DNA of 64,000 nt from positions 216,450 to 280,449 of the forward strand of contig CAVTHI010000008.1 in the NCBI GenBank assembly GCA_963734525.1, read 5' to 3'. A program made the position numbers and the translations under genes. This stretch comes from an uncultured archaeon. GTDB taxonomy: Archaea > Micrarchaeota > Micrarchaeia > Anstonellales > Bilamarchaeaceae. Shown here piece by piece: positions 19,404 through 39,903 of this stretch (position 1 is its first letter; each line of letters opens with the position of its first letter). The notes beneath the pieces were generated by a model. That model searched no databases. It was given only the letters and a program-made list of their open reading frames with translations, and was not told the origin of the DNA.

Positions 19404-20566
19404 TTGCCATGGGAGGACAATTCGCAGAACGGACCGCGGCACCCCCGCAGGCGGGGATACCGGCCATGCAGATTACGGCGGCGGACAACATACTTCGGGA
19501 GCTCAGCAGCCAGAGCCAGCGCGGGCGCGAGCAGGCGCCGCAAGCCCGCCAGGCTATAGAGGCCGGCGAAGCCACCCTGGTTGCCGCCAGGGGACTGGCC
19601 CAAAGCTTCACCCGCCCGAGGGCAGAAGGAGGCCTCGGCTACCAGCCGCGCCACGGGACTACCGTGGAACAGAGGCGCCAGGAAGAGCTCGCCCGCCTGA
19701 CAACGGCGAGGGAAAGGCTCGTCGAACTGCGCGGGCACACTTTCGGAGACGCAGTCGTAGACCAGAATTTCCGGAGGGTCCTCGACGCCCAGATAGGGGT
19801 AGTCGATGCGGCGCTGGTGCGCGTCCACGGGGGGACGAAGCCGGTCACCACAGATGACGTCGACCATGCGCATAACAGCATGAACCAGGTCCAGGGGAAC
19901 ACCGGCCAGATTGTCGAGGTCGCGACGACGGTCACCGCGGCCATGAGGGCAGGCCTGCCGCCCGAGCTCGCGCGCAACGCGTCCGCGGCCCTGCATTTCC
20001 ACCAGTCCGGCCAGGCGCTGAGGGCGAGGCTGATTCTTCGCGGAGTCAGCGAGACCGCGCGGAGAAGTGACACGTTCCTTTCGCAGGACGGCAGCGGACA
20101 GCTCGACGCGATTACGGCCACGACGACACAGCTCGCGGACACAACGAGAACGATGTCGGACCAGGACCTGGCGAGGGCCGGGCAGGACATCACGAACATC
20201 ATGGGCGGGGCCGATGCGTTAGCGGCCGCCAGGATGGAGGCGGCCAGGCAGGCATTCGACGCGCAGAACCGCACGCTGCGCTCCACGCTCGCTTCCGAAA
20301 CCAATGAAAGGATGAAGGTCCAGCTCAGGGACATCATCGCGGACAACGAAGCGATGCTGGCACGGCTCCAGAGGGGGAGCACGAATCCGCCCGAGCGAGC
20401 AGGAGCTCAGGCTGTTGTCTTCGAGGACGCTGGCCGTCCGCTCCATGTGCGAGGATTTGGCCAGGACGCCGGCCGGGCCTGCGGGAGCCGGCCAGCCGCA
20501 TCTACAGCGCCGCGCTCACGGTGCTCGACACGCCCCCGACCGCGCAGGAGAACGCGGACGCGATAA
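19400..20566 (+). CDS. Giant-locus segment 1: Ala/Arg/Gln/Thr-rich helical protein, probable N-terminus of the mega-ORF
   Basis: GTG 19400 (or ATG 19409) is coupled to the upstream stop. The last ~40-60 codons (…GRACGSRPAASTAPRSRCSTRPRPRRRTRTR) look out of frame. Confidence 0.65.
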   Translation: MIAMGGQFAERTAAPPQAGIPAMQITAADNILRELSSQSQRGREQAPQARQAIEAGEATLVAARGLAQSFTRPRAEGGLGYQPRHGTTVEQRRQEELARLTTARERLVELRGHTFGDAVVDQNFRRVLDAQIGVVDAALVRVHGGTKPVTTDDVDHAHNSMNQVQGNTGQIVEVATTVTAAMRAGLPPELARNASAALHFHQSGQALRARLILRGVSETARRSDTFLSQDGSGQLDAITATTTQLADTTRTMSDQDLARAGQDITNIMGGADALAAARMEAARQAFDAQNRTLRSTLASETNERMKVQLRDIIADNEAMLARLQRGSTNPPERAGAQAVVFEDAGRPLHVRGFGQDAGRACGSRPAASTAPRSRCSTRPRPRRRTRTR

Positions 20567-24700: not shown

Positions 24701-27700
24701 GCACGCATCCGGAGGAGTTCCGGCAGGCGAGGGAAGACCTGCTAACTCACAGCGGCACATATTTCACCCCATACCGGGCCCAGCTCGAGGCGGATGGAGA
24801 GACTACGTATGCCGAAGGCAGGCACCAGCAGCGCAGCGTCGGCTGGACGTATGCGAGGCTGCAGTTAACGTCGATGCAGGACGATTTGAGGATGGGTGAC
24901 CAGGCCCAGACCTACAGGGAGGGGAGAAGCGCCCAGACACAGCACGCAAGGGACGCTCTCGACCGGGCGAAAGGAAGGCCGGGCAGGATGTACCTCATCT
25001 CGGACGCGCACAGGGAACACGCGGCGAGGAGGGCCGAGGCCGCGCTTGCCATGCTCCATGAGGACAACGACTACCGCGCGCAGGACATACTCCGCAGCAA
25101 CGAGACATTGACCGCGCCAGTATACGAGTTCCACGGCCCGAGCCGCGACTGGAATTATGCGCGGGTGGGGACGGATGTCAACATCTACAGCGATAGGAGC
25201 GGCAGCGGAAGGCGCATCGGAGGCCGCCAGATAAACCCGATTGACGAGATGGACACGCTCAACCGCGCCGAGAACATGGAGCTCACGAGCTATACCGACA
25301 GCGACCTGTTCTATGATTCCAGGGCGCGCGTCCGGCCGCAATTTGAAACGATAGGCCGGAACCAGACGGACCTGCAGCTTGGGCTCCTCGGGTTCCGCAG
25401 GGTCCCTCTTCTCAACGATCCTGACGGATACACCCACCGCATCGTATCATGGACGCCTGCATCCGAAGCGGAGTACGCGAGGGTTAATGACGCCTACACG
25501 CAGTTCATGCGCCTTCGCGGGCAGATGCAGTCATCGGTTTTCCAGCACGATTCGCCATGGGGCGACGACCCGCAACTCCGGTTCCTTGAGCGGACCGCAG
25601 AGCGCACTTCGAACGCGGCTTTGTCGGTATACGAACTCCAGCCATACCGAATGGATGAAAGGCCCACCGGCACGAACGCTGAAAGGCTGGCGGCATCCCA
25701 AAGCAGGCTGAGGGACAGCGGATTGTTCGTCCAGGAGGGGAACCAATATGTCGACAGGGATTTTGCGACAAGGGATGCGCTATCTAGCATGACGAACTAC
25801 CGCAGCGGCTACAACGTCGTCTGCGGAGTCGGCGAGTTCGCGGTCGCAACCGCAGGCGTCGTCTTCGCGCCGGTCACCGGAGGGGCGTCCCTCGCACTCA
25901 CGGTCGGCGTCGGCGCAATGGGCGTGCACCGCGGATTAGTCATGAGGGAGCAGGCCGGCGAGTGGACCGGCATGGCGACGTTCACTACGGTCATGGGCGG
26001 AATCGGGATGGTCCTGCCTGTTGCCGGCGAACTCGCAGGAGGGGGCAGGCTGCTTGCAGGCGGCGCTGAGCTGGCAAGCGAACTCTCTGCAGGAAGCAGG
26101 ATTGGAACCGCGGCGACGGAAACCGCAGTCGCATTGACAAGGAGCCAGAGGGCCCTCCAGTGGGCTGTGGGCGTCGGCAACGAGGCGAACTGGGCGCAGA
26201 GATATGTCGGGCGCACTGTGCTCGGCGCGTATGAATTGAACCTGGCACAGCGCGGCGTGCACGTGATGGGAACCGGCATGATGGCCGGCGGCTTCGCTCA
26301 GTTCGGCTACCAGCTCCCGCAGATGATAGAGGGCGTGCGCCGTGGCGACATGGCCTGGTTCGAGGCGGCCTTCGGCGGCTTCCAGGCGATCGTCCAGCCC
26401 ATGGCGCAGGCGGGCTTCGTGCAGTTCCGCGTGGGGCAGGCGGCAAGGGGAGGCGGCATTCCAGCTTACAGGCCCGCGTGGCAGCAGGGAGTCGAGGCGG
26501 TTTTCCTCGGCCACCCGCTGACGCTGGGGCAGGAGCACGCGCAGTCTCTTGCTTATCACAACGCGCGGATAGAATTCAATGCCCTCCCGCAGACGGTGAG
26601 GGAATCTTACGTTTCATTCAGGGACAGCACGGGAATACGGCTGCCGCCGGACGTCGAGGTTCGCGTCCTGCGGGAGTACCGCGCGGCGAACGAGCAGGGG
26701 ACCGCGAGGAACTTCCAGGAATTCGCGTCAGGTTCCAGGGATGTGCAGGTCGCGCGGCTCGAAGCGGTCCGCGACGCGATTGTCGAGGGGAGGGTGAGGC
26801 TGTCCGAACTGCCCCGCGACCAGCAGGAATATATCCGGACGAGGCAGGCCGGCGGCAGCGAAGCCGCCGCGCTGACCGCCCGCGACCTGGCCATCGCAGA
26901 ATCCAGGGCGCCTGCGCCAAGGACGCCTGAGACGGTCGCGGAGCAGAGCAGGGCGACCCTTGAGCGGCTCGACCGCGCCGCGGAGATGCGCGACCGGAGG
27001 GACGCCGCGGCCGCCGCAGTCCAGCTGAGGCAGGAGAGGACGGATTTGAGCGGCTCGTTCGATGCGGCTTTCACCGGGAGGAGCTCGGACGGGACGACGA
27101 CCACTTACACGCTCGGCAGGGGCGAATCCGCAATCACGTTCGGGGAGCAGCACGTCTCGCTCGCGACCGACCTCGCATTCAACGCGCAGAGGATTGTGCG
27201 GAGGCCGGAAGGCCAGACGATGGAGCGCGCGGCCGCTGAAGCGCGGACGAGAATCCGCGCCCAGCTTGAGCCGGAGGTCCGCGCGAACAGGATGAGCGTG
27301 GCTGACGCCGAGCGGATTACCGGCGAAAGGATGAGCCGCGTCGAGCAGATGGCCCGCGACCCGGAGTTCGTCCGCGCCACGCCGCGCGACGGGGCGGCGA
27401 ACAGGGGCGAACAGCTGCGCCTCGGGCTCGAGAGCGCGGGATTCCTGCCAGAAATCGCTCCAGGCCGGATGTCATCAGGGCGAGGAACTCGGTCGAAGTC
27501 CTCAGGATTCTTAACAGCAGGGAGCTCACGCCGAACGACCTTGAGGTTTTCGCTTTCAGGAGGCAGCAGCAGTCCGAGGAAGCGGAGACGAGCGCGCTGG
27601 GCATGGAGACTCGCGCCGCAAGGTTGCGCGAGAGCAACCCCCAATCGCGCGAGGCTACAGCGCTCGACGCGAGCGCGCAGAGGCTCCGCGCGGAAGCGGC

Positions 27701-28182
27701 GGGGCTGGAAAACAGCGCGAACACGTTACTATCTGAGGCTGCGGGAAGAAGGACCGTTGCCAGGGCCGGGGAGCTCAGGACGAGGGCTGAGCGCCTCGAA
27801 TACCGCGCCCTGCTCGACCAAGGCCAGGCAGAGGCGCTCCGCGGAAGGGCCGCGGGATTGCGCGCGGAAGCCGAGAGGATGTCGCCGCAGCCCGCGAGGC
27901 GGGAAGGCAGGATGTCGGCGCGCGCTCCGGACGTTCCGGAGGTGCTTGCGAATGTCAGCCCCGAAAGGTATGCGGCATCGGCGCTCAGGAACAGGGCGCT
28001 TGACCTGGAGCAGGCGGCAGCGGCGAACGAGGCGCGCGCTTCGAGGATGGGCCCCGAGGACAGGCAGGCTACGGCAGGGATTGCCGCCGGTTTCCGCGAG
28101 GCCGCAAGGGCCATGCGCACGCAGGCGGAGCAGTTCGAATCCGGAAGCGTCACGGTCACACCCGAAGGAGTCCAGGCGCTGA
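23317..28182 (+). CDS. Giant-locus segment 4: LP-motif repeats, globular region, Gly-zipper hydrophobic core. Genuine coding in this frame probably ends ~27460
   Basis: TTG start only. Sensible sequence runs to …LGLESAGFLPEIAPG, followed by ~240 codons of Arg/Ser/Gly junk. Hydrophobic GVGEFAVATAGVVFAPVTGGASLALTVGVGAMGV / TTVMGGIGMVLPVAGELAGGG at 25806-26070. Confidence 0.7.
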   Translation: MHPQGHLLRDNNITQATALINRMIDLLPEGRKAEFRSRIAAANQRNEGESESAFRLRQNGILQSTYAELGNLTGTRTTNEQGNLIYDTVGNYADYRVVSGMFWSERFDAAGSAMNGAAATIGIQSNRAGMWVTNRVFAIQREAAAERTGFPPGMNAIASALLSPEGLGLAGGRTVTPPTDATLNEIISHLPADKRADYQARLARIREAEGRAGAARPGTPDAITRDIFMEGGGRQGLLESLASERIRTPAGRDVNLLTTIASRSPLYFDAEGYDRRFVSAQAAVDRGNVAEGNRILLGLTGGRQRDGTEVVGDIEIGQGMESSDIRRFTLRASAWTQERARSGVRGEFMEGAPPGTEETRARQMREDRNLAIVPVLEALEGSMGRSVSELNAAATANERARDEIGTTRTVLRVNDSLVANLWAMLPRDAASRYDARIDEMNAGGTSPTRRNEIARELYAEMRTHPEEFRQAREDLLTHSGTYFTPYRAQLEADGETTYAEGRHQQRSVGWTYARLQLTSMQDDLRMGDQAQTYREGRSAQTQHARDALDRAKGRPGRMYLISDAHREHAARRAEAALAMLHEDNDYRAQDILRSNETLTAPVYEFHGPSRDWNYARVGTDVNIYSDRSGSGRRIGGRQINPIDEMDTLNRAENMELTSYTDSDLFYDSRARVRPQFETIGRNQTDLQLGLLGFRRVPLLNDPDGYTHRIVSWTPASEAEYARVNDAYTQFMRLRGQMQSSVFQHDSPWGDDPQLRFLERTAERTSNAALSVYELQPYRMDERPTGTNAERLAASQSRLRDSGLFVQEGNQYVDRDFATRDALSSMTNYRSGYNVVCGVGEFAVATAGVVFAPVTGGASLALTVGVGAMGVHRGLVMREQAGEWTGMATFTTVMGGIGMVLPVAGELAGGGRLLAGGAELASELSAGSRIGTAATETAVALTRSQRALQWAVGVGNEANWAQRYVGRTVLGAYELNLAQRGVHVMGTGMMAGGFAQFGYQLPQMIEGVRRGDMAWFEAAFGGFQAIVQPMAQAGFVQFRVGQAARGGGIPAYRPAWQQGVEAVFLGHPLTLGQEHAQSLAYHNARIEFNALPQTVRESYVSFRDSTGIRLPPDVEVRVLREYRAANEQGTARNFQEFASGSRDVQVARLEAVRDAIVEGRVRLSELPRDQQEYIRTRQAGGSEAAALTARDLAIAESRAPAPRTPETVAEQSRATLERLDRAAEMRDRRDAAAAAVQLRQERTDLSGSFDAAFTGRSSDGTTTTYTLGRGESAITFGEQHVSLATDLAFNAQRIVRRPEGQTMERAAAEARTRIRAQLEPEVRANRMSVADAERITGERMSRVEQMARDPEFVRATPRDGAANRGEQLRLGLESAGFLPEIAPGRMSSGRGTRSKSSGFLTAGSSRRTTLRFSLSGGSSSPRKRRRARWAWRLAPQGCARATPNRARLQRSTRARRGSARKRRGWKTARTRYYLRLREEGPLPGPGSSGRGLSASNTAPCSTKARQRRSAEGPRDCARKPRGCRRSPRGGKAGCRRALRTFRRCLRMSAPKGMRHRRSGTGRLTWSRRQRRTRRALRGWAPRTGRLRQGLPPVSARPQGPCARRRSSSNPEASRSHPKESRR

Positions 28183-31100
28183 GAAGCAGGGCCGGCGAAT
28201 TGCGCGCCGAGGCGCAGCAGCTGCGCACGCGGAGGGATGCGGACATCCAGCGCGCCGCCGCCCTTGAGCGCAGCGGAAGGGGCGAGGAGGCCCAGGCAAT
28301 CAGGAGGGGCGCGGCGAGAACCGGGGCTGAAATCTCATCCCGCGAAAACGAAGCCGTGTTCCTCACGCGCGAAGCGTCGAACCTGGAAACGATACTCAGG
28401 GCGAGAAGCGGCGAGGCCACAAGGCCCGCCGCGGCGCCATCGCGCAGGACGCGCGCGGCCGAGGGCGTGGACGAATCTTCGCCGGCGAGATTCATCTCCG
28501 ACGATGCGATAGGGACGAGGATAATAGAGCGCGCCCTCGCCCCGAGGGACAACCCGTCCCAGCAGCAGGAGTGGTTCGTAGGCGGCGAGCGCATGACGGT
28601 AGGAAACAACACCGAGGTCGTGACTACCCGCAGGGTGCTTCAGACCGTCGACACGTGGGTGCGCGGCATGGCGCGCGCTGGACAGGAAAGCGACATCATC
28701 GTGCTGAGCGGCGACAAGCGCCTGCTGAACAACATCAACAACGCGCTCGGGCGCCCAATCGGGGACCGGGCCCTATCCGCCTACCGCGAGGTCCTGCGCC
28801 GCGCGGTGAACGGGGCCGCGGGCGAAGGAACGCCGTTCCTGCTCCGCCCGTCGCAGAGCGGGGATGAAGTGCTTGCGGTCATAGTGGTTCCGAGAGGCCG
28901 CGGACAGGCGGTGCGCGAGGCGCTCGCCGCGGGAGTCAGGAGGGCCGAGGCGGACGTGCTCCAGGAAAGGCTGAATCCGGAGCATCCTGAAAGCCTCGCC
29001 GCCGCATCGAGGATGGTTAGGGACCCGAGAGGCCTCGTTTCCGCCGCTGTTGAGATTGGCGATGTCGTCCAGGTGCGGAGGGGCCAAGGCGGGGAGGTCA
29101 CTGCCACCGGCGTGCGCCAGGATGGAAGCACTTACAACGCGGAGGTCGCGAGGACCGACGCGCAGGGAAGGGAGACGCGCGAAATCGCCGGCCCGGCGCT
29201 CAGCCGCGCCGACGACCCGAGATGGGGGCCGGACCTCAGAAGGAGGCTCGGCGTTCGGGAGCAGATGGACATCACGCTCGGCCTCGAGCCGCTGGAAACC
29301 GCGCGCGTAAGGGACGCGCTGTCAAGGCAGCGGAGCGGCCAGGTGCTAAGGCCCGAGGAGCAACGCGTCGTCGCGGAAGTCCAAAGGCGCGTCGGGGAGG
29401 GCGCATCCGAGGATGCCGCCGTGTTCGCTACGGCCCAGGCGCGGGCGACCGTGTCCCCGACGGAAAGGGTGAGCGGACTCACATTCGAAGTAAGGCTCGA
29501 GGTCACGGACCCGGCCACGCTCGCGCGGATGCGTGCGCTCCTGCCCGAAAGCAACAAGGGGCTGGCCGAACTCGCATCGAACAGGTTCGGCATCAGGGGC
29601 CTCAACACATTCCTCGGCCACCAGGGCTCGAACGGGATAGTGACGTCAGTCGAGCACGCCGTCGGCGATTTCGCATCGTCGCCCTATGCGAGGCAGCGGG
29701 GAATCCGCGTGCGGCGCCTGGGCACCATGAAGTATATAATAGAAGGGGGCAACGCGGCCGACATGCGCATGATGCGCAGGATGATAGACCGCCAGCTCAG
29801 CTCGGACCACGCGCAGATGCGCATGAGCAGGACGACGCACCACGCCCAGCTTACGGACGTGACCGGCGAAACTGCCCTCGCCCACGCGCAGAACGGGCAT
29901 CTTTCGGTAGACCGGAGGCAGGACCCGTCGCGCAGGACGGACTGGGACGGGGAAACCAGGCTCTATGAGATGGCCAACTCGATTCTCTCGAACATATCAG
30001 TCCGCGACGAGGCGTCGCTTGCGAGGATGCTCGGGCCCGAGGGCTACAGGCTTCTCCGCGACAGCGGAGTCCTCGACATGGTACGGGGCAATGCGGAGGC
30101 GGGATTCGGAAGATACGCGAACGGCCCGATAAGGAATTTCGAGGATTTCGTCCGCGCCCTGCGCCAGGAAGTCGGCGGGGAGCGCGGAAGGACTATGGAG
30201 AGCGCGTTCAGGAGGTTCATCATCGAGAACGAGCCGGTGCTGAGCCGTAGGTTCGCGACCGAGAGGACGGAATTGTCCGCACCCGAAGTCTCTGGCCGCA
30301 TTGCGACCAGGAGGCAGGAAATCGGCCGGGTTTATGAAAGGCGCACGGGAACGCTCACCCCGTCCGAACAGCAGACCGTGACGAGGGTCGACGAGCTCGT
30401 CCGCACGCGCGGGATGACCGCCGAGCGGGCGATGGATTATGTCGCAGACGAGCAGGTGAGGCCGCACGCAGTCAACGCCGATGCGACGCATATCGAAGGG
30501 GAGCAGCGCACCTTCACCGCGATGGCGCCCGAATTCCAGGACACGCGCGTCGTGCAGGGGGACGGGAGCACGGTCAGGCTCGGGGACGCGCCGAGGGGAA
30601 GGCTGATAGGCCGCCTCGACGACACGTTCGAGACGTCAGGCTCTTCCGCAGGCGTTTTCCGCGGCGAGGTGCTGGTGAACGGACAGCCGGCCGAAGTGGC
30701 GATTAAATTATACAGGGATCCGCCCGGTGCGACGCACGACCAGCCGGCCACGCCCGCGAGATGGAGGCGGATGATAAGGTATGCGCAGGAAGAGGTGAAT
30801 TCCCTGCGCACGCTTTCTGAAATCAGGGTGAACCTGCCCGACGAGCACGGCGTCATGCGCGAGGTCCCGCTCGGACCGGCGGTGATAGGGTTCGTGCAGG
30901 TCGACGGCAACCCCGCGATAGCGATGGAGCGCGTGCAAGGCCGCGCGATCGACGAATTGACGCCGAGCGAGATAAGGAGGTTCGTCACGCCGAGGACCTA
31001 CGAGCAGCTGCGCACCATGTGGGATGCATTGCACCGCGCGGGATACGACATCGGCGATTTCCAGTTCGCGGTCCTCACGTCCGACCAGCGCGTCAACGGC

Positions 31101-34100
31101 GTGCAGAGAAGGGCCGGCGAGATAGTGTTCTGGGATGCCGGCGGCCTGGCGCCGCTCGCGAGGAACATGAGTCCGAAATCCGCGGATTACCAGGTGAACT
31201 TCCATGAGAGGGTCGCCGAGGCAATCCTGATATCCGATTATATGTGGCGCGAGGGACCTGACGGCGAGCAAATTCCGCGGAGGCCGCAGGCGGAGTTCAC
31301 TGCGCTTGACACGGCGCTCCGCGGCGCTCTTGGCGTGCCGGCAGACCGCCAGGTGACGACTGCCGACCTCCTCACCCAGTTCCGCGATATGGGCCAGAGC
31401 GGACCGCAGGGAACGGATGTGGGATTCTCGGCCGCGCAGCGCAGGCAGGCGGTGGCGGATTATCTTTCGCGCATGCCGGACCGCGCAGAAGCGGCGAGGC
31501 TCGAAACTACGCTCAGGGATATCGAGGCGGGTTCGGGAATGGCATTCCTTCCGCCGAGGGCGGAAGCCGCGGCCGCGCAGAGGCGCGCCGCGACAGCGGG
31601 AGCGCCGGCGGAGAGGGGGGATACGACCACGCCGATGCCGCCCCGCGAGCCGACGCAGCCCCCGCGCGAGCCATCACAAAGGCCGCGCGAACCGTCGCAG
31701 AGGCCGCGCGAGCCTTCGCAACAGCAGCGCGAGCCCACTCCGGAAGAAAGGGCCGACACCGAGCCGTCGCCGCCGCAGGCGAGGCCGCCTTCGAGGCCCA
31801 ATGAGTCCGCCCAGCTGCGCCCTGTTGAAGATGTGACGGGAGTGCCGAGGCAGGCGTTCGACGACATCCGCGCAGGCATGGCCATTCCGGACATCATCGA
31901 CAGGCTTTCGCAGGGCAACGCTACCGCGGCGAGAAGGCTTGAGAATGCCGTCGGGCCAATGCTTAGGGACCCGGTATTCAGCGAAAGATTCAGGCTCGCC
32001 TCGGATACTGAGAAAGCGATGATTGTCGAATCGCTGGCAAGGGGAAGGGCGCCAGCGGATGCATTCATGGATTTGGGCGCACTGACCGCACCCAGGACCG
32101 CGCAGGAATTCGAATCGCTCACGGCGAGGCTCGCGGCGCTTCCGGCCCAGGAGAGAAACCTGCGGCTCACCGAAATCAGGGCGGCGAACTCCCTGCTTGC
32201 GGACGCGGTCGGAATCGCCGCCGCAGAACCGTCGCCGCAAAGGAGGGCCCGCCTCGCGACCGAGTTCGAGACAGCGATGGGAGAGCGCGGGCGCATCGCC
32301 GAAGTCGAACGGGCAAGGGGCGCGCGCACGCCCGCCGAGCTCCGGGACCAGGAGGAAGCGCTGATACGCCGCACGGCAACGGACAGGGGATTGGATGCCG
32401 AGGCGGCCGTCAGGAATTACGGGGCCGGAGGGACGGAAGGCAGGCTCAATGCCATAGCGGGCCTGGGCGCCGATGTGACGCGCGTCCGCGCGCAGTTCCA
32501 GCGCGAGCAGGACAGGATAGGGCGCATGGCCGACGGACCTGCGAAGGACCATGCCCAGCAGCGCCTGGACCGGGCCGGGGAGGATTTGTTCGCGCTTTAC
32601 ACGAGAGGGAACCTCCAGGGCAGCATAAGCGGCCTTCCGGGTTTCGAGGGGGCGACGGTCGCCAGCATATCATTCCTTCCGGGGATGAGGGGCGTCTATG
32701 AGGTCCGCATGTCGAACAACCGGCGCGTCTTCATAAAGATGGAGGACGTTTCGGCCGCGGGCTTGGGCCGCGATTTGGCGGCTACGCGCGGATTGTACAC
32801 TTCCGAAATCCATGGCGGGTTCTCTTACGAGACAGGGCTCAGTTACCGCAACGGGACGCCGGTCCGGCAGGAGTACGGAATCATCGAGGACATCCATGAT
32901 GCGGCCGGCCGCAACATCCGCATCCGGCTCCCGTCAGGGCCTGCCGAGGATGTCCGCGTGGTGGGCGTCTCGATGCTGAGGCACGAGGTGCTCGAGGTCC
33001 CGCGGCCGCCGGCCGCAGGTGCATCGCCTGCGGAAGTGCAGGCGTACCAGCAGCGCCTCGCGAGGTTCACGTCCGACCCGGTCATCCGGGAATTCTACAG
33101 GCTTTCCGGGACGCCGCAGGGGCGCGAGACGCTCATGCAGGCGTGGAACGCATACCATGAATTGTCGAGGCGCTCGCTTCTCGGGGACAGGTACGCGCGC
33201 AACACCGCGGCAGTCCTCGTCGAGAGGGCGAACGGCGAGCGCGTCCTCACGTTCCAGCCGATAGACATGGATGCCGTGGGGTGGAGGGTATTGTCCAATC
33301 CGGATGGCACGCCCAATTTCATGTTCTTCAACAGGGACTTCGCGGACGCCAGCACGGATTTCGTCCAGAGGGCGTCGAGCGCGAGCCTGGCCGCTGAAAG
33401 CATCGGCCTCCTTCCCGCAGGGGTTCCGGCATATGCATTTGGCGACGCGATGTTCAGCCAGCGCGCGCAGAGGCCGCTTCCCCCGGAGATACCTCCGCAA
33501 AGGCAGGCAGGGCGCGACATCATCGCCCGCCATGACGGCCAGCCTTTCGGCGCAGGCTATGACACGACAAGCGGCGAGTACAGCCCGGTCGGAGGCACTG
33601 CCGTCCACGGTGGAAGGACGAGGTTCATCGAGCGGGCCGACGGGCGCATGAGGATGTACGCGGACGAGATGAACCCGCTGATGGAAGCCAACCTTTCGCC
33701 GCAGGCGAGGGCGGACTACGCGCGCGAGCAGCAGGAACGCATGCGCAGCGTGCGGAGAAGGCCTGGCGGAGGAGGTGGAGGCCCGCCGCCGCTTCCGGCG
33801 GCAAGACAGTCGTCAGGCCCGGTCGTCGAGATTACGGACGGGCAGATAATACGCGAGCCTTCGGCCCCGGCACCGAGGCCGAGCGGAAGAGCGCCGTCGC
33901 AGCGTCCTGAGCGGACGATGGAGGTTTCCGATTCCGATATAGTCCATGACGCTCCGGCGGTTCCGCCGGAGCAGCCCCCAGCTCCTTCGCAAAGGCGCGG
34001 CCCGCCTCCGCTTCCGACGCAGCGCGATGCGACGATGAATGTTTCCGATTCAGAATTGATTATCGAACCGCCGGCGGCACCGGCAAGGCGCGGGCCGCCT

Positions 34101-35528
34101 CCGCTCCCTCCCGCCGAGCCGGCCCAGGCGCCGTCGCGCAGGGGACCCCCGCCTCTCCCGCCAGAGCAGGCGCAGCAGCCGCGGCGCGGGCCGCCGCCGC
34201 TTCCAGCCAGAGGGGAGCGCACACAGCCGCTTACAGAGGCGGACATGATTCCGGTCCAGCCCCCAGGGCGCACGCCTCCGCCCCCGCCACCATCGGCGCA
34301 GGCAAGGAGGGCGCCCGCAGGGCCGCAGCCCCAGGTGAATCCCGTCGACCTCGTCCAGCCGGCTAACCTTGCAACGTTCGCCAACAGGCTCGCGGCCAAC
34401 GATGCCGCGGCGGTGCGCGACCTGGCAGCCATGCCGCCGCAGGTGCGCGACACGGTAAACGCCCTCATGCTGAGGATGGGCGGAGCGCCGAGAAGCCCCC
34501 AGGAGCAGGCGACGCTCGCCCGCGAATTCTCCGGAAGGGTGCTTGCGACGCGGCTGATTGCGGACCCGGAAACGCTGTGGAGGTTCGCCTCCACCTTCAG
34601 GTTCGGCGAGACCGCATCGGGCGTCACGCCCGAACAGACCGCCATGCTCAATTCGCTCCCCCCCTCCGTCCGCGGGACCGTGCTTGAATTCGCCGGGAGG
34701 CTGAGGAACGAATGGAGCGCGAGGGATGCGCTCGAACCCGGATACACCGAAAGGATAACCAGGCAGATAGATGTCGAAACCGTGCGGGACTTGTACGTCT
34801 CGCACAGGGCAGGAACCAGAATCACCGACCCGGCCGACCGCATGGCTGTCGAGTATGTCACCGCAGGCGGGAGGACTCCCGACCCCGCGACGCGCGAAGG
34901 CGCAAGGCTGATTGAGGCCGCCGCGGTCATGCGCAACGCCGCGAGGAGGCTTGTGGAAGCATCGGGCGGGTCTGCGGACGCGCTCGCAGCGGCGCGGGTA
35001 AATGCCGAAACCGTCAGGACAGGCCAGAGGCCGAATGATTTCAACAGGGCTTTGGCATACGACTTCATCAATGATTTGGCGCAGGCCAGCGCGGCTGCCG
35101 CCGGACGCGGAGTGCCCACAGCAGAGGATTACCTGTATGCAACAGTGACGCATGCATATTTCACGAGGGCCGGGAGCGCCGACACGGCGAGAATCTCCGG
35201 CACCCATTATTTCCCCGGAAGCGACGCAATCGAACAGCATGTCACCGCGACGCTGGAATGGGGCGGGCAGAGTTTCAATATCCGGATTTTCCGGGACAGG
35301 GTGAATTTCGGGGATGTGGAACCGGCGAGGGCAGTCGGCGAGCCGAGCTGGCCGTCATGGCAGATGAGGGACGCGTTCCTGAGATACGCACAGCGCACGC
35401 TGCGCGGGCCCGCTCGAAGAGGCGGTGCGCCCGGTCATGCGCGCGATACCGAGGGAAGCGGGGCAGGATGCCAGGGCGTGGGCCGCCGCGACGCGCGCGA
35501 ATCCGACCGGCGACATCCAGATACCTAG
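27603..35528 (+). CDS. Giant-locus segment 5 (2641 codons): coiled coil, two GGDEF-like modules, ePK-like fold, PI3K/PI4K-like module, Pro-rich arrays
   Basis: The frame is open and sensible upstream of ATG 27603 from ~27460 (RPDVIRARNSVEVLRILNSRELTPNDLEVFAFRRQQQ…). The tail after …AFLRYAQRTLRG looks out of frame. Motifs are listed under findings. Confidence 0.75.
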   Translation: METRAARLRESNPQSREATALDASAQRLRAEAAGLENSANTLLSEAAGRRTVARAGELRTRAERLEYRALLDQGQAEALRGRAAGLRAEAERMSPQPARREGRMSARAPDVPEVLANVSPERYAASALRNRALDLEQAAAANEARASRMGPEDRQATAGIAAGFREAARAMRTQAEQFESGSVTVTPEGVQALRSRAGELRAEAQQLRTRRDADIQRAAALERSGRGEEAQAIRRGAARTGAEISSRENEAVFLTREASNLETILRARSGEATRPAAAPSRRTRAAEGVDESSPARFISDDAIGTRIIERALAPRDNPSQQQEWFVGGERMTVGNNTEVVTTRRVLQTVDTWVRGMARAGQESDIIVLSGDKRLLNNINNALGRPIGDRALSAYREVLRRAVNGAAGEGTPFLLRPSQSGDEVLAVIVVPRGRGQAVREALAAGVRRAEADVLQERLNPEHPESLAAASRMVRDPRGLVSAAVEIGDVVQVRRGQGGEVTATGVRQDGSTYNAEVARTDAQGRETREIAGPALSRADDPRWGPDLRRRLGVREQMDITLGLEPLETARVRDALSRQRSGQVLRPEEQRVVAEVQRRVGEGASEDAAVFATAQARATVSPTERVSGLTFEVRLEVTDPATLARMRALLPESNKGLAELASNRFGIRGLNTFLGHQGSNGIVTSVEHAVGDFASSPYARQRGIRVRRLGTMKYIIEGGNAADMRMMRRMIDRQLSSDHAQMRMSRTTHHAQLTDVTGETALAHAQNGHLSVDRRQDPSRRTDWDGETRLYEMANSILSNISVRDEASLARMLGPEGYRLLRDSGVLDMVRGNAEAGFGRYANGPIRNFEDFVRALRQEVGGERGRTMESAFRRFIIENEPVLSRRFATERTELSAPEVSGRIATRRQEIGRVYERRTGTLTPSEQQTVTRVDELVRTRGMTAERAMDYVADEQVRPHAVNADATHIEGEQRTFTAMAPEFQDTRVVQGDGSTVRLGDAPRGRLIGRLDDTFETSGSSAGVFRGEVLVNGQPAEVAIKLYRDPPGATHDQPATPARWRRMIRYAQEEVNSLRTLSEIRVNLPDEHGVMREVPLGPAVIGFVQVDGNPAIAMERVQGRAIDELTPSEIRRFVTPRTYEQLRTMWDALHRAGYDIGDFQFAVLTSDQRVNGVQRRAGEIVFWDAGGLAPLARNMSPKSADYQVNFHERVAEAILISDYMWREGPDGEQIPRRPQAEFTALDTALRGALGVPADRQVTTADLLTQFRDMGQSGPQGTDVGFSAAQRRQAVADYLSRMPDRAEAARLETTLRDIEAGSGMAFLPPRAEAAAAQRRAATAGAPAERGDTTTPMPPREPTQPPREPSQRPREPSQRPREPSQQQREPTPEERADTEPSPPQARPPSRPNESAQLRPVEDVTGVPRQAFDDIRAGMAIPDIIDRLSQGNATAARRLENAVGPMLRDPVFSERFRLASDTEKAMIVESLARGRAPADAFMDLGALTAPRTAQEFESLTARLAALPAQERNLRLTEIRAANSLLADAVGIAAAEPSPQRRARLATEFETAMGERGRIAEVERARGARTPAELRDQEEALIRRTATDRGLDAEAAVRNYGAGGTEGRLNAIAGLGADVTRVRAQFQREQDRIGRMADGPAKDHAQQRLDRAGEDLFALYTRGNLQGSISGLPGFEGATVASISFLPGMRGVYEVRMSNNRRVFIKMEDVSAAGLGRDLAATRGLYTSEIHGGFSYETGLSYRNGTPVRQEYGIIEDIHDAAGRNIRIRLPSGPAEDVRVVGVSMLRHEVLEVPRPPAAGASPAEVQAYQQRLARFTSDPVIREFYRLSGTPQGRETLMQAWNAYHELSRRSLLGDRYARNTAAVLVERANGERVLTFQPIDMDAVGWRVLSNPDGTPNFMFFNRDFADASTDFVQRASSASLAAESIGLLPAGVPAYAFGDAMFSQRAQRPLPPEIPPQRQAGRDIIARHDGQPFGAGYDTTSGEYSPVGGTAVHGGRTRFIERADGRMRMYADEMNPLMEANLSPQARADYAREQQERMRSVRRRPGGGGGGPPPLPAARQSSGPVVEITDGQIIREPSAPAPRPSGRAPSQRPERTMEVSDSDIVHDAPAVPPEQPPAPSQRRGPPPLPTQRDATMNVSDSELIIEPPAAPARRGPPPLPPAEPAQAPSRRGPPPLPPEQAQQPRRGPPPLPARGERTQPLTEADMIPVQPPGRTPPPPPPSAQARRAPAGPQPQVNPVDLVQPANLATFANRLAANDAAAVRDLAAMPPQVRDTVNALMLRMGGAPRSPQEQATLAREFSGRVLATRLIADPETLWRFASTFRFGETASGVTPEQTAMLNSLPPSVRGTVLEFAGRLRNEWSARDALEPGYTERITRQIDVETVRDLYVSHRAGTRITDPADRMAVEYVTAGGRTPDPATREGARLIEAAAVMRNAARRLVEASGGSADALAAARVNAETVRTGQRPNDFNRALAYDFINDLAQASAAAAGRGVPTAEDYLYATVTHAYFTRAGSADTARISGTHYFPGSDAIEQHVTATLEWGGQSFNIRIFRDRVNFGDVEPARAVGEPSWPSWQMRDAFLRYAQRTLRGPARRGGAPGHARDTEGSGAGCQGVGRRDARESDRRHPDT
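31641..31742 (+). repeat. Tandem 7-aa/21-nt repeat PREPSQR (about 4.5 copies)
   Basis: PREPTQP PREPSQR PREPSQR PREPSQQQ REPTP, read directly from the sequence. Confidence 0.85.
33766..34335 (+). repeat. Proline-rich array: 5x GPPPLP cores (4 as RRGPPPLP) interleaved with acidic [VI](S/T)D(S/G)[DE/Q][IL][IV] motifs, ending in PPPPPP
   Basis: GGGGGPPPLP…VVEITDGQIIREP…MEVSDSDIVHDAP…QRRGPPPLP…MNVSDSELIIEPP…ARRGPPPLP…SRRGPPPLP…PRRGPPPLP…LTEADMIPVQPPGRTPPPPPPS. Confidence 0.85.
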
Positions 35529-38500
35529 GACGAGGCCAGGCCGCGCTCCCCCGGCGCAGACATCGATGACGCCTGAGGAGGTCGTCAGGGTTCATCTTAC
35601 CGCAGATACGGGCGGAAGGGCGGATGCTGCAGCCGCCCTGATGCGCATGCCCCCGCGCGACCGTGCACGGACCGTCGAATTGCTCCGTGAAAGGGCGCGC
35701 CCGCTTGAGGAACGCGCAGGAGCGATGGAGGCCGAGGCGAGGAGGCTTGAGGCACAGACCGCGCCGCAGGAAACGAACATCGTCCAGAGGCAGCAGGGCG
35801 CCGAGGCCGAAGCTACAAGGCTCTTCGAAGAGGGTCGCCAGCTCAGCACCCAGGCGCAGGCGGCCGAGGCGCGCGGGGATGCTCCCGAAGCCGCCCGGTT
35901 ACGGACCGAGCAGAACCGCATTGAAACGCAGGCTTACGAGAGGGATGCCGAAGGCAGGCGCCTCGCCATCGAGCTTAGCCGCGTCCGGGAGCCTGCCAAC
36001 AACCTGCGAAACGACGCAGCCGGACTGAGGACCCAGGCGCAATACTGGAACGAGCATGCGATGTTCTACCGCGAGCTGGGAAGCCTCAGCGGCGATGCGG
36101 GCACGAACATTTCCACGATGTTCATGATTCCGAGGGAAGAGCTTGCATCGATATACGCCCGTGCGCCCACATTATCCGAAGCGAGGCAGGCGATTTATGA
36201 CCGCCTCGGAATACGGCTCGGGGACCTTCCCCCGCTCGAAGTCAGGAGCGACGCGTATAAGAGCTTCAACTCGCTTGCGGACGACCCGTACATAGCGGGC
36301 ATGATGCTCACCGGGGACCTTTTCCGCAACATCGAGCAGATGGTGAGGCCGGACATGCTCGGCCTCCAGCCGGGCGACCGCGTGGTCGTGAGGGGCATAA
36401 GCTTCCAGAACGGCCTGGTCGGCGCATACCGCATCAGGCTCGAAGTCGTGGACAGCACGGGAAACCCGAGGACATTCACGGACCGGGGCGGGAATTCCAG
36501 GGACAGCATGACCGTCTTCGCGAAGAGGCAGGACCTGCGTCCCGATGCGGTCGGCTCGGAAGGAGGCTCGCTCACCGGGGCGCCATCGCCGCAGATTCGC
36601 GTGACCGGGCCGAACGGAAACCTTTCATACGTATCGCCCGAAGGGCATACAATCAACTACGGCATCATGCGCGACATACATGATTTCAGCGGGGAAGTGG
36701 CCGCGGGCGGGCACCGCCTGCAGGTCACGGTCGACGCCGCGGAAGACCTGTACAGCCTCGTGTTCAGGCAGGAGGGTGCGCGCGATGCTGGAAGGCAGCA
36801 ATTGTTCGCCGAACTGCGGGACAACCCGGACCAGTTCATCGAGGCGCTCGGCTATGCGCAGACCGGATTCGCCGCGGCCGGGTTCTATGACAGGCACGAG
36901 GCGAACGTCTGGGCGATGTGGCTCCGGATAGGTAACCAGCCGCCCGCGGAAGCCGCGCGCATGGCGCAAAGCCTCCGCGGCCAGGGCTACCGCGTCCGGG
37001 ACAACGGTGACGGCTCGTTCAGCTTCCTGCGCTTCGGCGCGATTGATTCGGATACGTTCGGTTCCTACCGCGCGACGGTCCGCGAGGACGACAGCATCTC
37101 GCTGCGCCCGATGGCCAACCAGTTGACGACGGACATGCACCGCGTTTTCGTTCATTTGACATATGAGATGAATACCGCGGAAATGACATTGGCGGCCTCG
37201 CAAGGAAGAAGGCCGCGCCTCCTCACAGTCGAGCAGGTCATTGAAAGGTCGTTCGGCGCGAACATGGACGGGCCGTGGATACGGGGCATGCGCAGATGGG
37301 CCACCGAGTTCAGCCCGACCACGGAGCAGGGCAGGAGATTCAATGATTCGATGAGGGGCCTGCTGAGCAACTACCACGGCCAGCGCAGCGGCATGGGATT
37401 CGCGATGGAAGGGGCCCAGCTCGGGAGGTTCGAGAGCGACGGCTACGTGCCGGTCCCCTCGGCCCTCAACGGCTCGCCGGTCACAATCGTGGACGGCATG
37501 GACGGAAGGGCGAGCTTCCTCGCTACCGGCAGGATTGCCACGAACCCGACAATCGGGGAATCCGCAAACAGGCGCATCATCGCGGCTATACCCGAAGGGC
37601 AGGACAGGTTCCTTATCAGGACTGATGATTTGCACAGGACGCAGCGGACTGCGCTGCGCGGCGCCCTCGGCTCTGCGGCAACAGAGTTCAGGACCGCAGG
37701 CGTCGGGGGGAGAACCTATCTCGTCATAAGCGACCCGGCGGCGATACCGCAGCAATACCTTGACAGGACGATATCGGTCAACAGGACCGGCGATGTCCTC
37801 TACTCGTACAACTATGGCTCCTTCATGACAATGTTCCCGGAGGGCAGGAGAATGTTTATGCTCCGCGTCGACAACCTGCCCCGGTCGGATGCCCGGGCGG
37901 CCGGCAGGATTCGCGGGGCACAGCCGCTTGAGCTCGGGATAACAGGCGAAAGAAGATATGTGATCGTAGAGAATCCGGACAGCATCCCGCAGGCCCTCAG
38001 GGACCGTGCCGTCGAAGTCGTGAGGCACGAAAACCGCCTGATGGGAGCCGAAGGGATGGCAACCAACATCGGGATACTGCATACGAGGACCATCGGCGCG
38101 GTCAGGATGTTCGACCACGTGATGGGCATGGGCGACGCCGGCTGGAGGAGCCTCTGGCAGGGCGTCCGCGACGGCTTGATGACTGCAGAGGGGAACGAGC
38201 GCGCCGCCGGCGGGCAGGACTTCCTCATGAGGAGGGTTCCCCAGCCGAATGTGCGGCAGGCGCTCCCGCCGGAGTATGGCGGCCCGGCAAGGACCGCGCC
38301 GCTTCCGCCTGATGCGAACCCGCCGGGCGGCGCGCCGCCCGTGGCGCCTCCGCCAGTTCCACCGCAGGCGGCACCTTCGCGGGGACCGGACGGAACGATA
38401 AGGGGAGTCACTCCGCCAGCGGATGCGCAGGCGCAAAGGCCGCCGTCCCAGCCGCCACCGCCGCCGGTTCCGCGGCAGTCTGCACCGCCTGAAGCGGTGC

Positions 38501-39903
38501 CGAGCGATGCGAGGCCTACCGCGGTGCGCCCGCCGGAACCGCTGCCATCGGATGCAAGGCAGACGCAGAGACGCGGGCCTGCAGAGCCGATTCCATCGCA
38601 AAGGAGGCCGGCAGAACAGGTGCCACCGATTCCTTCTGAAGCAAGGCCGACAACACGCCAGGCTCCGCCGCCCCCGGCACCAGACGTGACGCTAAGGCGG
38701 GAAGGGCCGGTTCCGCCGCAGGCCATTCCCACTGACGCGAGGCCCACGCAAAGAATGGAATTGGGCGGGGCAGCGGCATATCCAGGAATGGCAGCGCAGG
38801 GCCGGGGATTCGGGCATAACGGTCTGCCGGGACGCATTTATGCTCCTGAAGAAGTGATGAAGGCGGGAGGCATCGCGAATGCCGCAGCCGGACGGACGGT
38901 GGAGGGCATCAGCGCCGCGGACGGCCGCGTCGCAGCGGAGCTCGCATTGCAGACGCCGTTCGTGCAGGCAGGGGCGGATGCACGGATGCGGATGGCGCTC
39001 ATAGCGATGGACAACGCCTCGATTGTCCGCGGCGAAAGCTCGATTCCCGTAAGGCAAAGGAATCCGGTGCAGGGCTCGATGAACGCCGAGCTTTCCGCAG
39101 CAGTCACCCAGACGGACGCCGCCGGCATGAGATACCGGGATGTCAGCGCATTTTACGACCGCGAAACAGGGGCGATAACCGCAATCGGGGCAAGGGGGCA
39201 GGGAGAGCGGGTCACAATCAGGGTCAACATGGACGACGGGCGCATCTTCAGCGTCAGCGGCACGGGCGAGGTGCATCCGTCGGTCGCAGCGCTTAGGGGA
39301 CATCAGATAATCGAGCCCCCGGCGCCCATAAGCGGAGGGCCGAGGGGAGGCCCGAGCGGGGGCGGCCCGGGCAGCGTCCGTGAAACGGCCGCTTTGGCGC
39401 AACGGGTGATGGGGGCGGAGCCCGCCGCGATTGCCAGCCTTGCATCGGCTTCGCAGGAAACGCGCCTCGCCGTCGGATTCGAGATTGCGGGGAGGTTGGA
39501 ACTCACGGATGCGAGGCATCTTGCCGGATTCGCCCGCGACCTGGTGATGTATGACCTTCATCGGTCCGGGCGGCGCCCGATAACGAACCCTGCGGATTTG
39601 GCAAGGGTCACGGAAAGCGCGAGGCGCATCGAGCTTCTGCCGGAACCAATCAGGAGGGCGGTCAGGGCCGTAAGCTCGGATGCCGGTTTCGGGCTGAATT
39701 CATTGCAGGATGATACAAGATTCAACAGGTTCGTCGGTAACCGGAGGACCGGCGGCGCATTGATAGAGACCGCGCGCGGGGCCATCATGCGCGCCATGCC
39801 GGCCGGGGACGATGTCCAATTGAGGATGGCTGTTGGCGCCGAAGAGATGGGAATGCCCCGTGCGCCGGGACAGGAGGGAAGGCCGGGCGGGGCAGGGGCA
39901 TGA
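35425..39903 (+). CDS. Giant-locus segment 6 (1492 codons): coiled coil, second PI3K/PI4K-like module, tandem ~80-aa duplication, Pro-rich array, C-terminal domain
   Basis: GTG start. The frame opens at 35383 and reads …GPLEEAV|RPVMRAIPREAG. It ends in a clean ATGA overlap with the next gene (39900-39903). Confidence 0.75.
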   Translation: MRPVMRAIPREAGQDARAWAAATRANPTGDIQIPRTRPGRAPPAQTSMTPEEVVRVHLTADTGGRADAAAALMRMPPRDRARTVELLRERARPLEERAGAMEAEARRLEAQTAPQETNIVQRQQGAEAEATRLFEEGRQLSTQAQAAEARGDAPEAARLRTEQNRIETQAYERDAEGRRLAIELSRVREPANNLRNDAAGLRTQAQYWNEHAMFYRELGSLSGDAGTNISTMFMIPREELASIYARAPTLSEARQAIYDRLGIRLGDLPPLEVRSDAYKSFNSLADDPYIAGMMLTGDLFRNIEQMVRPDMLGLQPGDRVVVRGISFQNGLVGAYRIRLEVVDSTGNPRTFTDRGGNSRDSMTVFAKRQDLRPDAVGSEGGSLTGAPSPQIRVTGPNGNLSYVSPEGHTINYGIMRDIHDFSGEVAAGGHRLQVTVDAAEDLYSLVFRQEGARDAGRQQLFAELRDNPDQFIEALGYAQTGFAAAGFYDRHEANVWAMWLRIGNQPPAEAARMAQSLRGQGYRVRDNGDGSFSFLRFGAIDSDTFGSYRATVREDDSISLRPMANQLTTDMHRVFVHLTYEMNTAEMTLAASQGRRPRLLTVEQVIERSFGANMDGPWIRGMRRWATEFSPTTEQGRRFNDSMRGLLSNYHGQRSGMGFAMEGAQLGRFESDGYVPVPSALNGSPVTIVDGMDGRASFLATGRIATNPTIGESANRRIIAAIPEGQDRFLIRTDDLHRTQRTALRGALGSAATEFRTAGVGGRTYLVISDPAAIPQQYLDRTISVNRTGDVLYSYNYGSFMTMFPEGRRMFMLRVDNLPRSDARAAGRIRGAQPLELGITGERRYVIVENPDSIPQALRDRAVEVVRHENRLMGAEGMATNIGILHTRTIGAVRMFDHVMGMGDAGWRSLWQGVRDGLMTAEGNERAAGGQDFLMRRVPQPNVRQALPPEYGGPARTAPLPPDANPPGGAPPVAPPPVPPQAAPSRGPDGTIRGVTPPADAQAQRPPSQPPPPPVPRQSAPPEAVPSDARPTAVRPPEPLPSDARQTQRRGPAEPIPSQRRPAEQVPPIPSEARPTTRQAPPPPAPDVTLRREGPVPPQAIPTDARPTQRMELGGAAAYPGMAAQGRGFGHNGLPGRIYAPEEVMKAGGIANAAAGRTVEGISAADGRVAAELALQTPFVQAGADARMRMALIAMDNASIVRGESSIPVRQRNPVQGSMNAELSAAVTQTDAAGMRYRDVSAFYDRETGAITAIGARGQGERVTIRVNMDDGRIFSVSGTGEVHPSVAALRGHQIIEPPAPISGGPRGGPSGGGPGSVRETAALAQRVMGAEPAAIASLASASQETRLAVGFEIAGRLELTDARHLAGFARDLVMYDLHRSGRRPITNPADLARVTESARRIELLPEPIRRAVRAVSSDAGFGLNSLQDDTRFNRFVGNRRTGGALIETARGAIMRAMPAGDDVQLRMAVGAEEMGMPRAPGQEGRPGGAGA
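37591..38040 (+). repeat. Tandem duplication of a ~75-80-aa module inside segment 6
   Basis: PEGQDRFLIRTDDLHRTQRTALRGALGSAATEFRTAGVGGRTYLVISDPAAIPQQYLDRTISV versus PEGRRMFMLRVDNLPRSDARAAGRIRGAQPLELGITGERRYVIVENPDSIPQALRDRAVEV. Confidence 0.7.
38491..38750 (+). repeat. Five copies of [AEP]x[VLI]P(S/T)(D/E/Q)(A/R)R(P/Q)(T/A) within a wider Pro-rich tract (38230-38760)
   Basis: EAVPSDARPT, EPLPSDARQT, EPIPSQRRPA, PPIPSEARPT, QAIPTDARPT. Confidence 0.8.

Follow-up and report, generated by a model that had tools for sequence, protein, structure and literature searches.

A proline-rich linker carrying two types of short motif in a giant protein of a Candidatus Micrarchaeota genus

The stretch analysed here, 64,000 nucleotides of an uncultured archaeal genome (hereafter the window), contains an open frame, P0001, that encodes a proline-rich linker densely occupied by short motifs. 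The linker, referred to below as the array, corresponds to aa 2055-2253 of P0001 (nt 33765-34361), spans ~190 residues and contains 28% Pro. It carries five GPPPLP cores (four of them as RRGPPPLP), one PPPPPP tract, and 4-5 acidic-hydrophobic motifs. The following features were read from the translation, except for the 117-nt unit, which was delimited as the segment missing in landfill relatives.

27603 to 35528, + strand, open frame P0001, 2641 aa, containing the array (ORF translation)
33765 to 33797, + strand, proline motif 1, a Gly run and core (GGGGGGPPPLP, aa 2055-2065)
33822 to 33860, + strand, acidic motif A1, VVEITDGQIIREP
33918 to 33956, + strand, acidic motif A2, MEVSDSDIVHDAP
33922 to 34038, + strand, 117-nt (39-aa) unit, EVSDSDIV...RRGPPPLP...TMN
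33993 to 34016, + strand, proline motif 2, RRGPPPLP
34035 to 34073, + strand, acidic motif A3, MNVSDSELIIEPP
34086 to 34109, + strand, proline motif 3, RRGPPPLP
34137 to 34160, + strand, proline motif 4, RRGPPPLP
34182 to 34205, + strand, proline motif 5, RRGPPPLP
34230 to 34265, + strand, acidic motif A4, LTEADMIPVQPP
34266 to 34295, + strand, proline motif 6, GRTPPPPPPS
34335 to 34361, + strand, fifth acidic-type motif, VNPVDLVQP, at the start of the next domain

Translating 27603-35525 reproduced the motif sequences and their order as described in the initial annotation of this DNA. That annotation called the two motif types alternating, which overstates the regularity, since the actual order of proline (P) and acidic (A) motifs is P-A-A-P-A-P-P-P-A-P. 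Its spacer lengths (24, 22, 13, 6, 4, 10, 8, and 9) are approximate only; the true spacers are 8, 19, 12, 6, 4, 9, 7, 8, and 0 residues. The PPPLP copies are irregularly spaced as well, at 73, 31, 17, and 15 aa.

When the residues of the segment were shuffled, none of 200,000 shuffles reached three or more PPPLP and the maximum was 2, compared with the 5 observed. In six-frame open frames of at least 80 aa across the whole 1.15-Mb genome, PPPLP was found 11 times, and 5 of these occurrences fall within this 430-nt stretch. At least one of the remaining copies is non-coding: the sixth in-genome candidate, RRRGPAPPPLPRGPGGK at C8:148487 (- strand), was rejected, its frame being an alternative one that overlaps a CBS-domain gene located upstream of a TruD-like gene. 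Tandem Repeats Finder (TRF) reported no DNA repeat within 33766-34335. The array copies are 63-94% identical in DNA, and their Gly, Pro, Leu, and Arg codons differ between copies. Contigs from an independent short-read run (X1, 97-99% alike) span the array without indels, indicating that the array is not an assembly artefact.

P0001 is one piece of a giant gene (~19409-39903, ~6,800-7,300 residues) that is cut into at least 5 frames in the assembly. An orthologue present as a single ORF, P0009, has 7279 aa and 62% identity, and another orthologue, P0010, has 6,147 aa and 52% identity. The acidic motifs occupy orthologous sites in P0009 and P0010 while the intervening spacers diverge (alignment A1). 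Acidic motif A1 is identical at 12 of 13 residues in P0009 (IEITDGQIIREP). The orthologues of A2 read MQVSDSDLIPGS in P0009 and MTVRDSDIVEE in P0010; in P0009, A3 reads MQVSESDLLPGS, the counterpart of A4 is LTEADLIPVQQP, and the fifth acidic-type motif reads VTPADLTQP. P0010 keeps three acidic motifs, namely the A2 orthologue, IPVTTDMIVEE, and MSPVDLVQP. Among the proline motifs, the Gly run and the PPP of motif 1 are kept in both orthologues. P0009 retains the proline motif in the form of a class, RR-x-PPP[LP]P: RRGPPPLP sites align with RRATPPPPS and RRSQPPPPPS, the latter at proline motif 5, and proline motif 3 is aligned with RRATPAPPPP. Proline motif 6 (GRTPPPPPPS) aligns with RPVPPPLPP of P0009, suggesting that PPPPPP and PPPLP are interchangeable. 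Overall, the acidic motif is better conserved than the proline motif. A regular expression for the acidic motif found 18 matches in the family versus 5.05 +/- 2.3 in block shuffles, an enrichment test that is partly circular because the expression was written after the instances had been seen. Of the 18 matches, 11 fall within Pro-rich sequence (2.5% of all positions), where 0.045 were expected. The proposal that the acidic motif forms a second element is therefore supported by its conservation; the regular spacing proposed along with it is not observed.

The proline motif also bears signs of selection. In a ~90%-identical landfill relative (X7), proline motif 4 reads RRGPPPLPPQ, and the six nucleotide changes in five of its nine motif codons are all synonymous, including a Leu codon changed from CTC to TTG. 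Counted across the family without the window protein and P0009, the non-Pro residues at position x of PPPxP include Leu (10/23), Met (2), Ile (1), and Val (1). The Leu preference has a binomial p of 6e-6 at a Leu frequency of 8%, with the sites drawn from six proteins only; in the rest of this genome, Leu takes the position in 4 of 37 cases. A Lys or Arg is usually found 1-3 residues upstream of PPPxP across the family. The motif is also present in the relatives P0019, P0026, and P0047; because these are low in GC and rich in Lys, GC bias does not explain it there. Moreover, two composites recur: PPP[LM]P-x(2-4)-GPGGT[KR][IL]xGG is conserved in a second linker of P0026, P0019, and P0009, and PPPLP-x-M.P..VV.V opens modules in P0019 and P0060. 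The second linker lies at 38263-38418 in the window (P0003 aa 947-998) and shares a conserved LPPEYGGP start with P0009, P0019, and P0026; the GPGGT composite is degenerate in the window (PPPVPPQAAPSRGPDGTIRGVTPP). Purifying selection on both motifs is credible. The possibility raised at the outset, that the array is a by-product of GC-rich Pro codons with no conserved spacing in homologues, was borne out in one half only: spacing and copy number are not conserved, but a pure GC by-product fails, as both motifs show signs of purifying selection.

The length of the linker varies in the family, from ~190 aa here and in P0010 to ~290 aa in P0009, and so do copy number and spacing. The landfill relatives X3 and X7 are without exactly one 117-nt unit, and its loss joins acidic motifs 2 and 3 in frame. 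The X3 contig jumps from 33921 to 34039, and a loose end of X7 has GREPSQRPD directly before 34031. In addition, X3 has 118 other letters in place of 34261-34377. Another linker, upstream of the kinase-fold domain described below (31641-31736), contains five PREP[ST]Q heptad-like repeats (TRF period 21, 4.7 copies); this repeat type is also present in P0009, with ERTTP-type words instead in P0010.

The array is flanked by two domains that were identified from AlphaFold2 (AF2) models.

32520 to 33755, + strand, domain with a protein-kinase-like fold (PI3K/PIKK-like), catalytic loop GDRYARN, motif IDMD (AF2, Foldseek)
34335 to 35420, + strand, C-terminal flanking domain, beginning with VNPVDLVQP (AF2)

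The kinase-fold domain is located directly N-terminal of the array (residues 1640-2051, model residues 1-412), and its model, built on 12 sequences, has a pLDDT of 90-98. In a Foldseek search against PDB, it matched ATM, DNA-PKcs, Tel1, VPS34, and Tyr kinases, with E values between 5e-4 and 1e-2 and probabilities of up to 0.95. These matches agree with the GDRYARN and IDMD motifs, which argues for a PI3K/PIKK-like kinase fold. The C-terminal flanking domain (residues 2247-2606, ~360 aa) is predicted to comprise ~14 helices followed by a sheet of 4 strands and one last helix (pLDDT 80-94). It gave no Foldseek match in PDB (best E 0.65) and nothing significant by phmmer against PDB, and P0001 matched no Pfam family at E <= 0.1. 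On the basis of the model, this domain is a candidate new fold; ~5 cluster representatives of it exist worldwide. The whole array had a pLDDT below 50 and no secondary structure in two AF2 models, and the linker is predicted to be intrinsically disordered.

The genes flanking the giant gene in the window are of archaeal type, encoding a LonB with a LID domain, a ProRS with ProRS-C_1, and a DUF373 protein, in line with the view of the array as part of an archaeal protein. LonB relatives at 71-94% identity are assigned to Candidatus Micrarchaeota / Micrarchaeia / Bilamarchaeaceae. The organism is a Candidatus Micrarchaeota, a DPANN symbiont of the Anstonellales/Bilamarchaeaceae group. This group is known from groundwater (PMC8561730), and the runs with related sequence are groundwater, subsurface, soil, freshwater, and landfill metagenomes. 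An origin from a halophile (nanohaloarchaeal, SPEARE-like) was rejected, because the housekeeping proteins lack an acidic character and the relatives belong to Micrarchaeota. Genome sizes range from 0.8 to 1.6 Mb across the order; the source genome measures 1.15 Mb in 9 contigs and is estimated to be 53% complete.

The giant-protein family has 52 relatives among 1.84 billion representative proteins. Among the other sampled genomes of the genus, 20 of 24 have homologues, with open frames of 4,600-8,600 residues; none was found in the 16 genomes sampled from the order's 13 other genera. In several genomes there are 2-4 giant paralogues. A pattern search of the genome contigs with P0001 aa 1500-2600 gave matches, none of which was confirmed as a relative, and a protein search with aa 1900-2641, whose 8,000 candidates were dominated by low-complexity words, returned the protein itself alone. 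The literature on giant proteins of DPANN or Micrarchaeota yielded nothing on this protein family, no RNA runs were found in a search for the array stretch, and Rfam and tRNA scans of the window gave no matches. Lysine is nearly absent from the products: it accounts for 8 of the 2,641 aa of P0001 and for 3 of the 1,492 of P0003, where Arg makes up 12-13%, and the housekeeping proteins of the window contain 4-8% Lys. Within the family, the Lys content is bimodal, at 0.1-0.4% or 4-10%. The giant-gene region (20000-42000) has 63-68% GC, compared with 56-62% in the flanks and 59% in the genome. The scarcity of lysine exceeds the GC bias of the genome and may reflect evasion of tagging or proteases that target Lys.

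One of the breaks in the giant gene was traced to a single position.

35409 to 35412, + strand, one extra base in a GGGCCC run, which breaks the frame between P0001 and P0003 (assembly compared with other runs)

The X1 and X3 contigs are each one base shorter at this position, and P0009 and P0010 read through the break (LRGPLE...MRAIP). At least this frame break is an assembly error or private to the strain. The other breaks (near 20540, 21750, 23330, and 27600-28180) may resemble it, and the 53% completeness estimate of the genome may partly stem from such indel errors.

Arrays of multivalent proline motifs are characteristic of signalling in eukaryotes and of the bacterial effectors that hijack it. 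To our knowledge, they are undescribed in archaea, where the only well-known pair of proline motif and receptor is the MIM2/MIT pair of ESCRT-III. We favour the reading that the array is a fast-evolving disordered linker in which two motif types serve as multivalent docking sites for a partner, and we assign it a probability of about one half. The linker is situated about two thirds along a ~7,000-residue multi-enzyme protein of one Candidatus Micrarchaeota genus. Its first motif type, a basic polyproline word ([RK][RK]-x-PPP[LP]P), would be expected to adopt a polyproline-II helix, and its second, an acidic-hydrophobic word ([MIV]-x-V-[ST]-[DE]-S-[DE]-[LI]-[IVL]), would be expected to bind as a short beta-strand. 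Jointly, the motifs would act as multivalent, low-affinity docking sites that hold one or more partners next to the kinase-fold domain, and their copy number would be tuned by gain or loss of the 39-residue unit. The partner might come from the symbiont, as a non-canonical domain, or be a protein of the host, provided that the giant protein or its C-terminal portion touches or gets into the host cell.

Several observations weigh against this reading. Receptors were sought by hidden Markov model (HMM) searches of canonical sequence families on the symbiont side, in six frames of 31 genomes of the genus, and none was found above the cut-off for SH3_1 (PF00018), SH3_3 (PF08239), WW (PF00397), WH1, or MIT (PF04212); profilin (PF00235) was likewise found in 0 of 31. 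Among the controls, six bacteria matched SH3_3, and Sulfolobus and methanogen genomes matched MIT. The control genomes gave no match to WW either, nor to profilin, for which the control set was without eukaryotes. The search for SH3, profilin, WW, or EVH1-like folds proposed in the initial annotation, made here with sequence families in 31 genomes of the genus, thus returned none above the cut-off. A pairing of the MIM2/MIT type was also rejected, since the array motif fits Phi-P-x-Phi-P-x-x-P-Phi-P only at LP and MIT is missing from the 31 genomes. The proline cores are unstable, being PPPPP(S) in P0009 and replaced by ERTTP-type words in P0010. In the AF2 models, the confidence did not rise on any motif, and no docking onto either neighbouring domain was predicted. 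Short repeats unrelated to these occur in other linkers of the same protein (five PREPSQ at 31641-31736; PSDARPT at 38497-38748), in keeping with generic linkers of low complexity that evolve fast. Across the 31 genus genomes, the GPPPLP DNA pattern showed no enrichment, with 28 matches versus 33 for the reversed control; the idea of an enrichment throughout the genus was dropped, and the five copies therefore represent a local expansion. The partial circularity of the acidic-motif test, mentioned above, belongs with these points.

Motifs that are kept under selection, in genomes with no recognisable receptor, point to an undescribed proline-recognition module or to a target in the host. A host-protein target of the array is plausible, given that the family is confined to one genus of archaea of the obligate-symbiont type, that the protein has many enzyme-like modules, and that the cytoplasms of a Micrarchaeota and its host, grown as a cultured pair, appear to be bridged by nanotubes. 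The lumen of these nanotubes measures 4.4 nm, and the authors describe it as wide enough for the transport of unfolded protein (PMC11329633). Short defined peptides, such as RRGPPPLPPE and TMEVSDSDIVHD, could be used as baits to learn which partner, and perhaps which host, this uncultured Micrarchaeota lineage has. Such motif peptides could also open a first functional approach to a family of ~7,000-residue proteins.

The array might instead be a passive spacer, an extended and protease-resistant polyproline-II tether like those of TonB and wall-spanning proteins, whose words arose by local duplication and bind no partner. In that case, it would be an ordinary low-complexity linker. Such a tether would accommodate the free variation of length, copy number, and spacing, the loss of polyproline cores in P0010, the unrelated repeats in other linkers of the family, the full disorder predicted by AF2, and the missing receptor domains in the 31 genomes, and we regard it as a real possibility, if on the unlikely side. 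It has no need, however, for Leu at position 4 of PPPxP or for the preceding basic pair. It also leaves unexplained the six synonymous and zero replacement changes in one motif copy, and an acidic word that is kept at orthologous sites amid diverging spacers.

A more far-reaching form of the docking reading takes the giant protein as a host-directed multi-enzyme effector, with its motifs as an archaeal case of motif mimicry that captures host proteins through an undescribed proline-recognition module. The membrane-inserting glycine-zipper core, the kinase-fold, GGDEF-like, HD, and HicA-like modules, and the near absence of lysine would all fit with it. An arms race over motif type and copy number would explain the switches from PPPLP to PPPPPS as well as the gain and loss of units. 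We consider this proposal unlikely.

A regulatory role in cis seems rather improbable. Under this explanation, the S-D-S-[DE] cores and the T-P words of sister linkers would be phosphorylated by the protein's own kinase folds and would then fold back for inhibition or scaffolding. The array indeed follows directly on a kinase-fold domain whose DRxxxN-type loop is intact, and the SDSD and SDSE cores of the acidic motif match the site patterns of acidophilic Ser kinases. Against it, neither of the two AF2 models showed a rise in pLDDT on any motif, and cis docking onto the adjacent kinase-fold or C-terminal domain, 2 of the many domains of the protein, was rejected. Furthermore, we know of no PI3K/PIKK-like fold that acts as an acidophilic Ser kinase.

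That the array is a functionless by-product of GC-rich coding (CCN codons) is very improbable and largely refuted: the gene has 66-68% GC compared with 59% for the genome, the segment is 28% Pro, and the GPPPLP pattern is not enriched genus-wide, but shuffling never reproduced five PPPLP, the motif persists in low-GC, Lys-rich homologues, Leu is preferred at one position of PPPxP, and the changes inside the X7 motif copy are only synonymous.

Least credible of all is a true FH1/WASP element, one that would supply profilin-actin or attract SH3, WW, or EVH1 proteins from the eukaryote-like cytoskeleton of a partner, be it an Asgard archaeon or a eukaryote. The words of the array do correspond to FH1, SH3 class I, and WW group II ligands, and published work retrieved for PPPLP concerns CrkII/Grb2 SH3, Abl SH3, and profilin-formin interactions, but the source habitats are groundwater, soil, and landfill metagenomes, and the known hosts of Micrarchaeota are Thermoplasmatales and Sulfolobales archaea (PMC11329633). 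The initial annotation had filed the array as FH1/WASP-style, and this assignment does not hold, as the domain after the array was identified as neither FH2, WH2, nor VCA by Pfam, PDB sequence, or Foldseek searches. An FH2 or actin-binding identity of this domain was rejected for want of a structural match.

Formin FH1 domains and the proline-rich regions of WASP/WIP do share features with the array. In all of them, several xPPPLP or polyproline tracts lie in disordered sequence beside a catalytic or effector domain, and all share multivalency, with the number and spacing of tracts varying between homologues. In formins, however, the tracts are followed by FH2, and in WASP/WAVE/WIP by WH2 (V) and central and acidic (CA) regions; the array is followed by a 360-residue helical domain instead. 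Its other neighbour is a PI3K/PIKK-like kinase fold, an acidic beta-type motif is interleaved with the proline cores, and the organism is a DPANN archaeon in whose genus no profilin was found (31 genomes). The FH1/WASP label marks a likeness and does not make the array a member of that family.

The proline cores do fit ligands of the eukaryotic type, as the initial annotation proposed. R-G-P-P-P-L-P in four copies matches the class I SH3 consensus (+x-Phi-P-x-Phi-P) letter for letter, a match at the level of sequence only, and PPLP corresponds to WW group II. Across the family, PPP is preceded by a conserved basic residue at a distance of 1-3 positions. A change from Leu to Pro is poorly tolerated in classic SH3 and WW pockets. 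In the array, by contrast, Leu is replaceable by Pro (PPPPPS) at orthologous sites, and no SH3 or WW domain was found in the 31 genomes. The class I core of EVH1 (WH1) ligands has an aromatic residue or Leu before PPPP ([FWYL]PPPP), whereas Gly or Thr precedes PPP in all array copies.

With TonB and the spacers of wall-spanning surface proteins, the array shares an extended polyproline-II character and the alternation of acidic and basic stretches between domains. Those spacers consist of dipeptide-type repeats without a position-specific core or a second motif, whereas the two motifs of the array show selection. The array also matches disordered linkers bearing short linear motifs, in that disorder is predicted and islands of motif are conserved against diverging spacers. 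It most closely resembles the two-motif effector repeats of the EspF/EspFU-TccP type, which are grouped here with the proline repeats of Listeria ActA as arrays of bacterial injected effectors and surface proteins; with them it shares a proline docking word and a second motif per unit, disorder, a strain-variable number of units, and multivalency. The repeats of the EspF/EspFU type are near-identical in DNA, arranged in tandem and fixed in unit length; those of the array are irregular and old, 63-94% identical, and without a TRF match. The array is a member neither of this group nor of the FH1 or SH3-ligand arrays. While effectors of the EspF/EspFU type hijack actin regulators of their host, the target of the array would lie in an archaeal host rather than a eukaryotic one, with delivery to it as a candidate step only.

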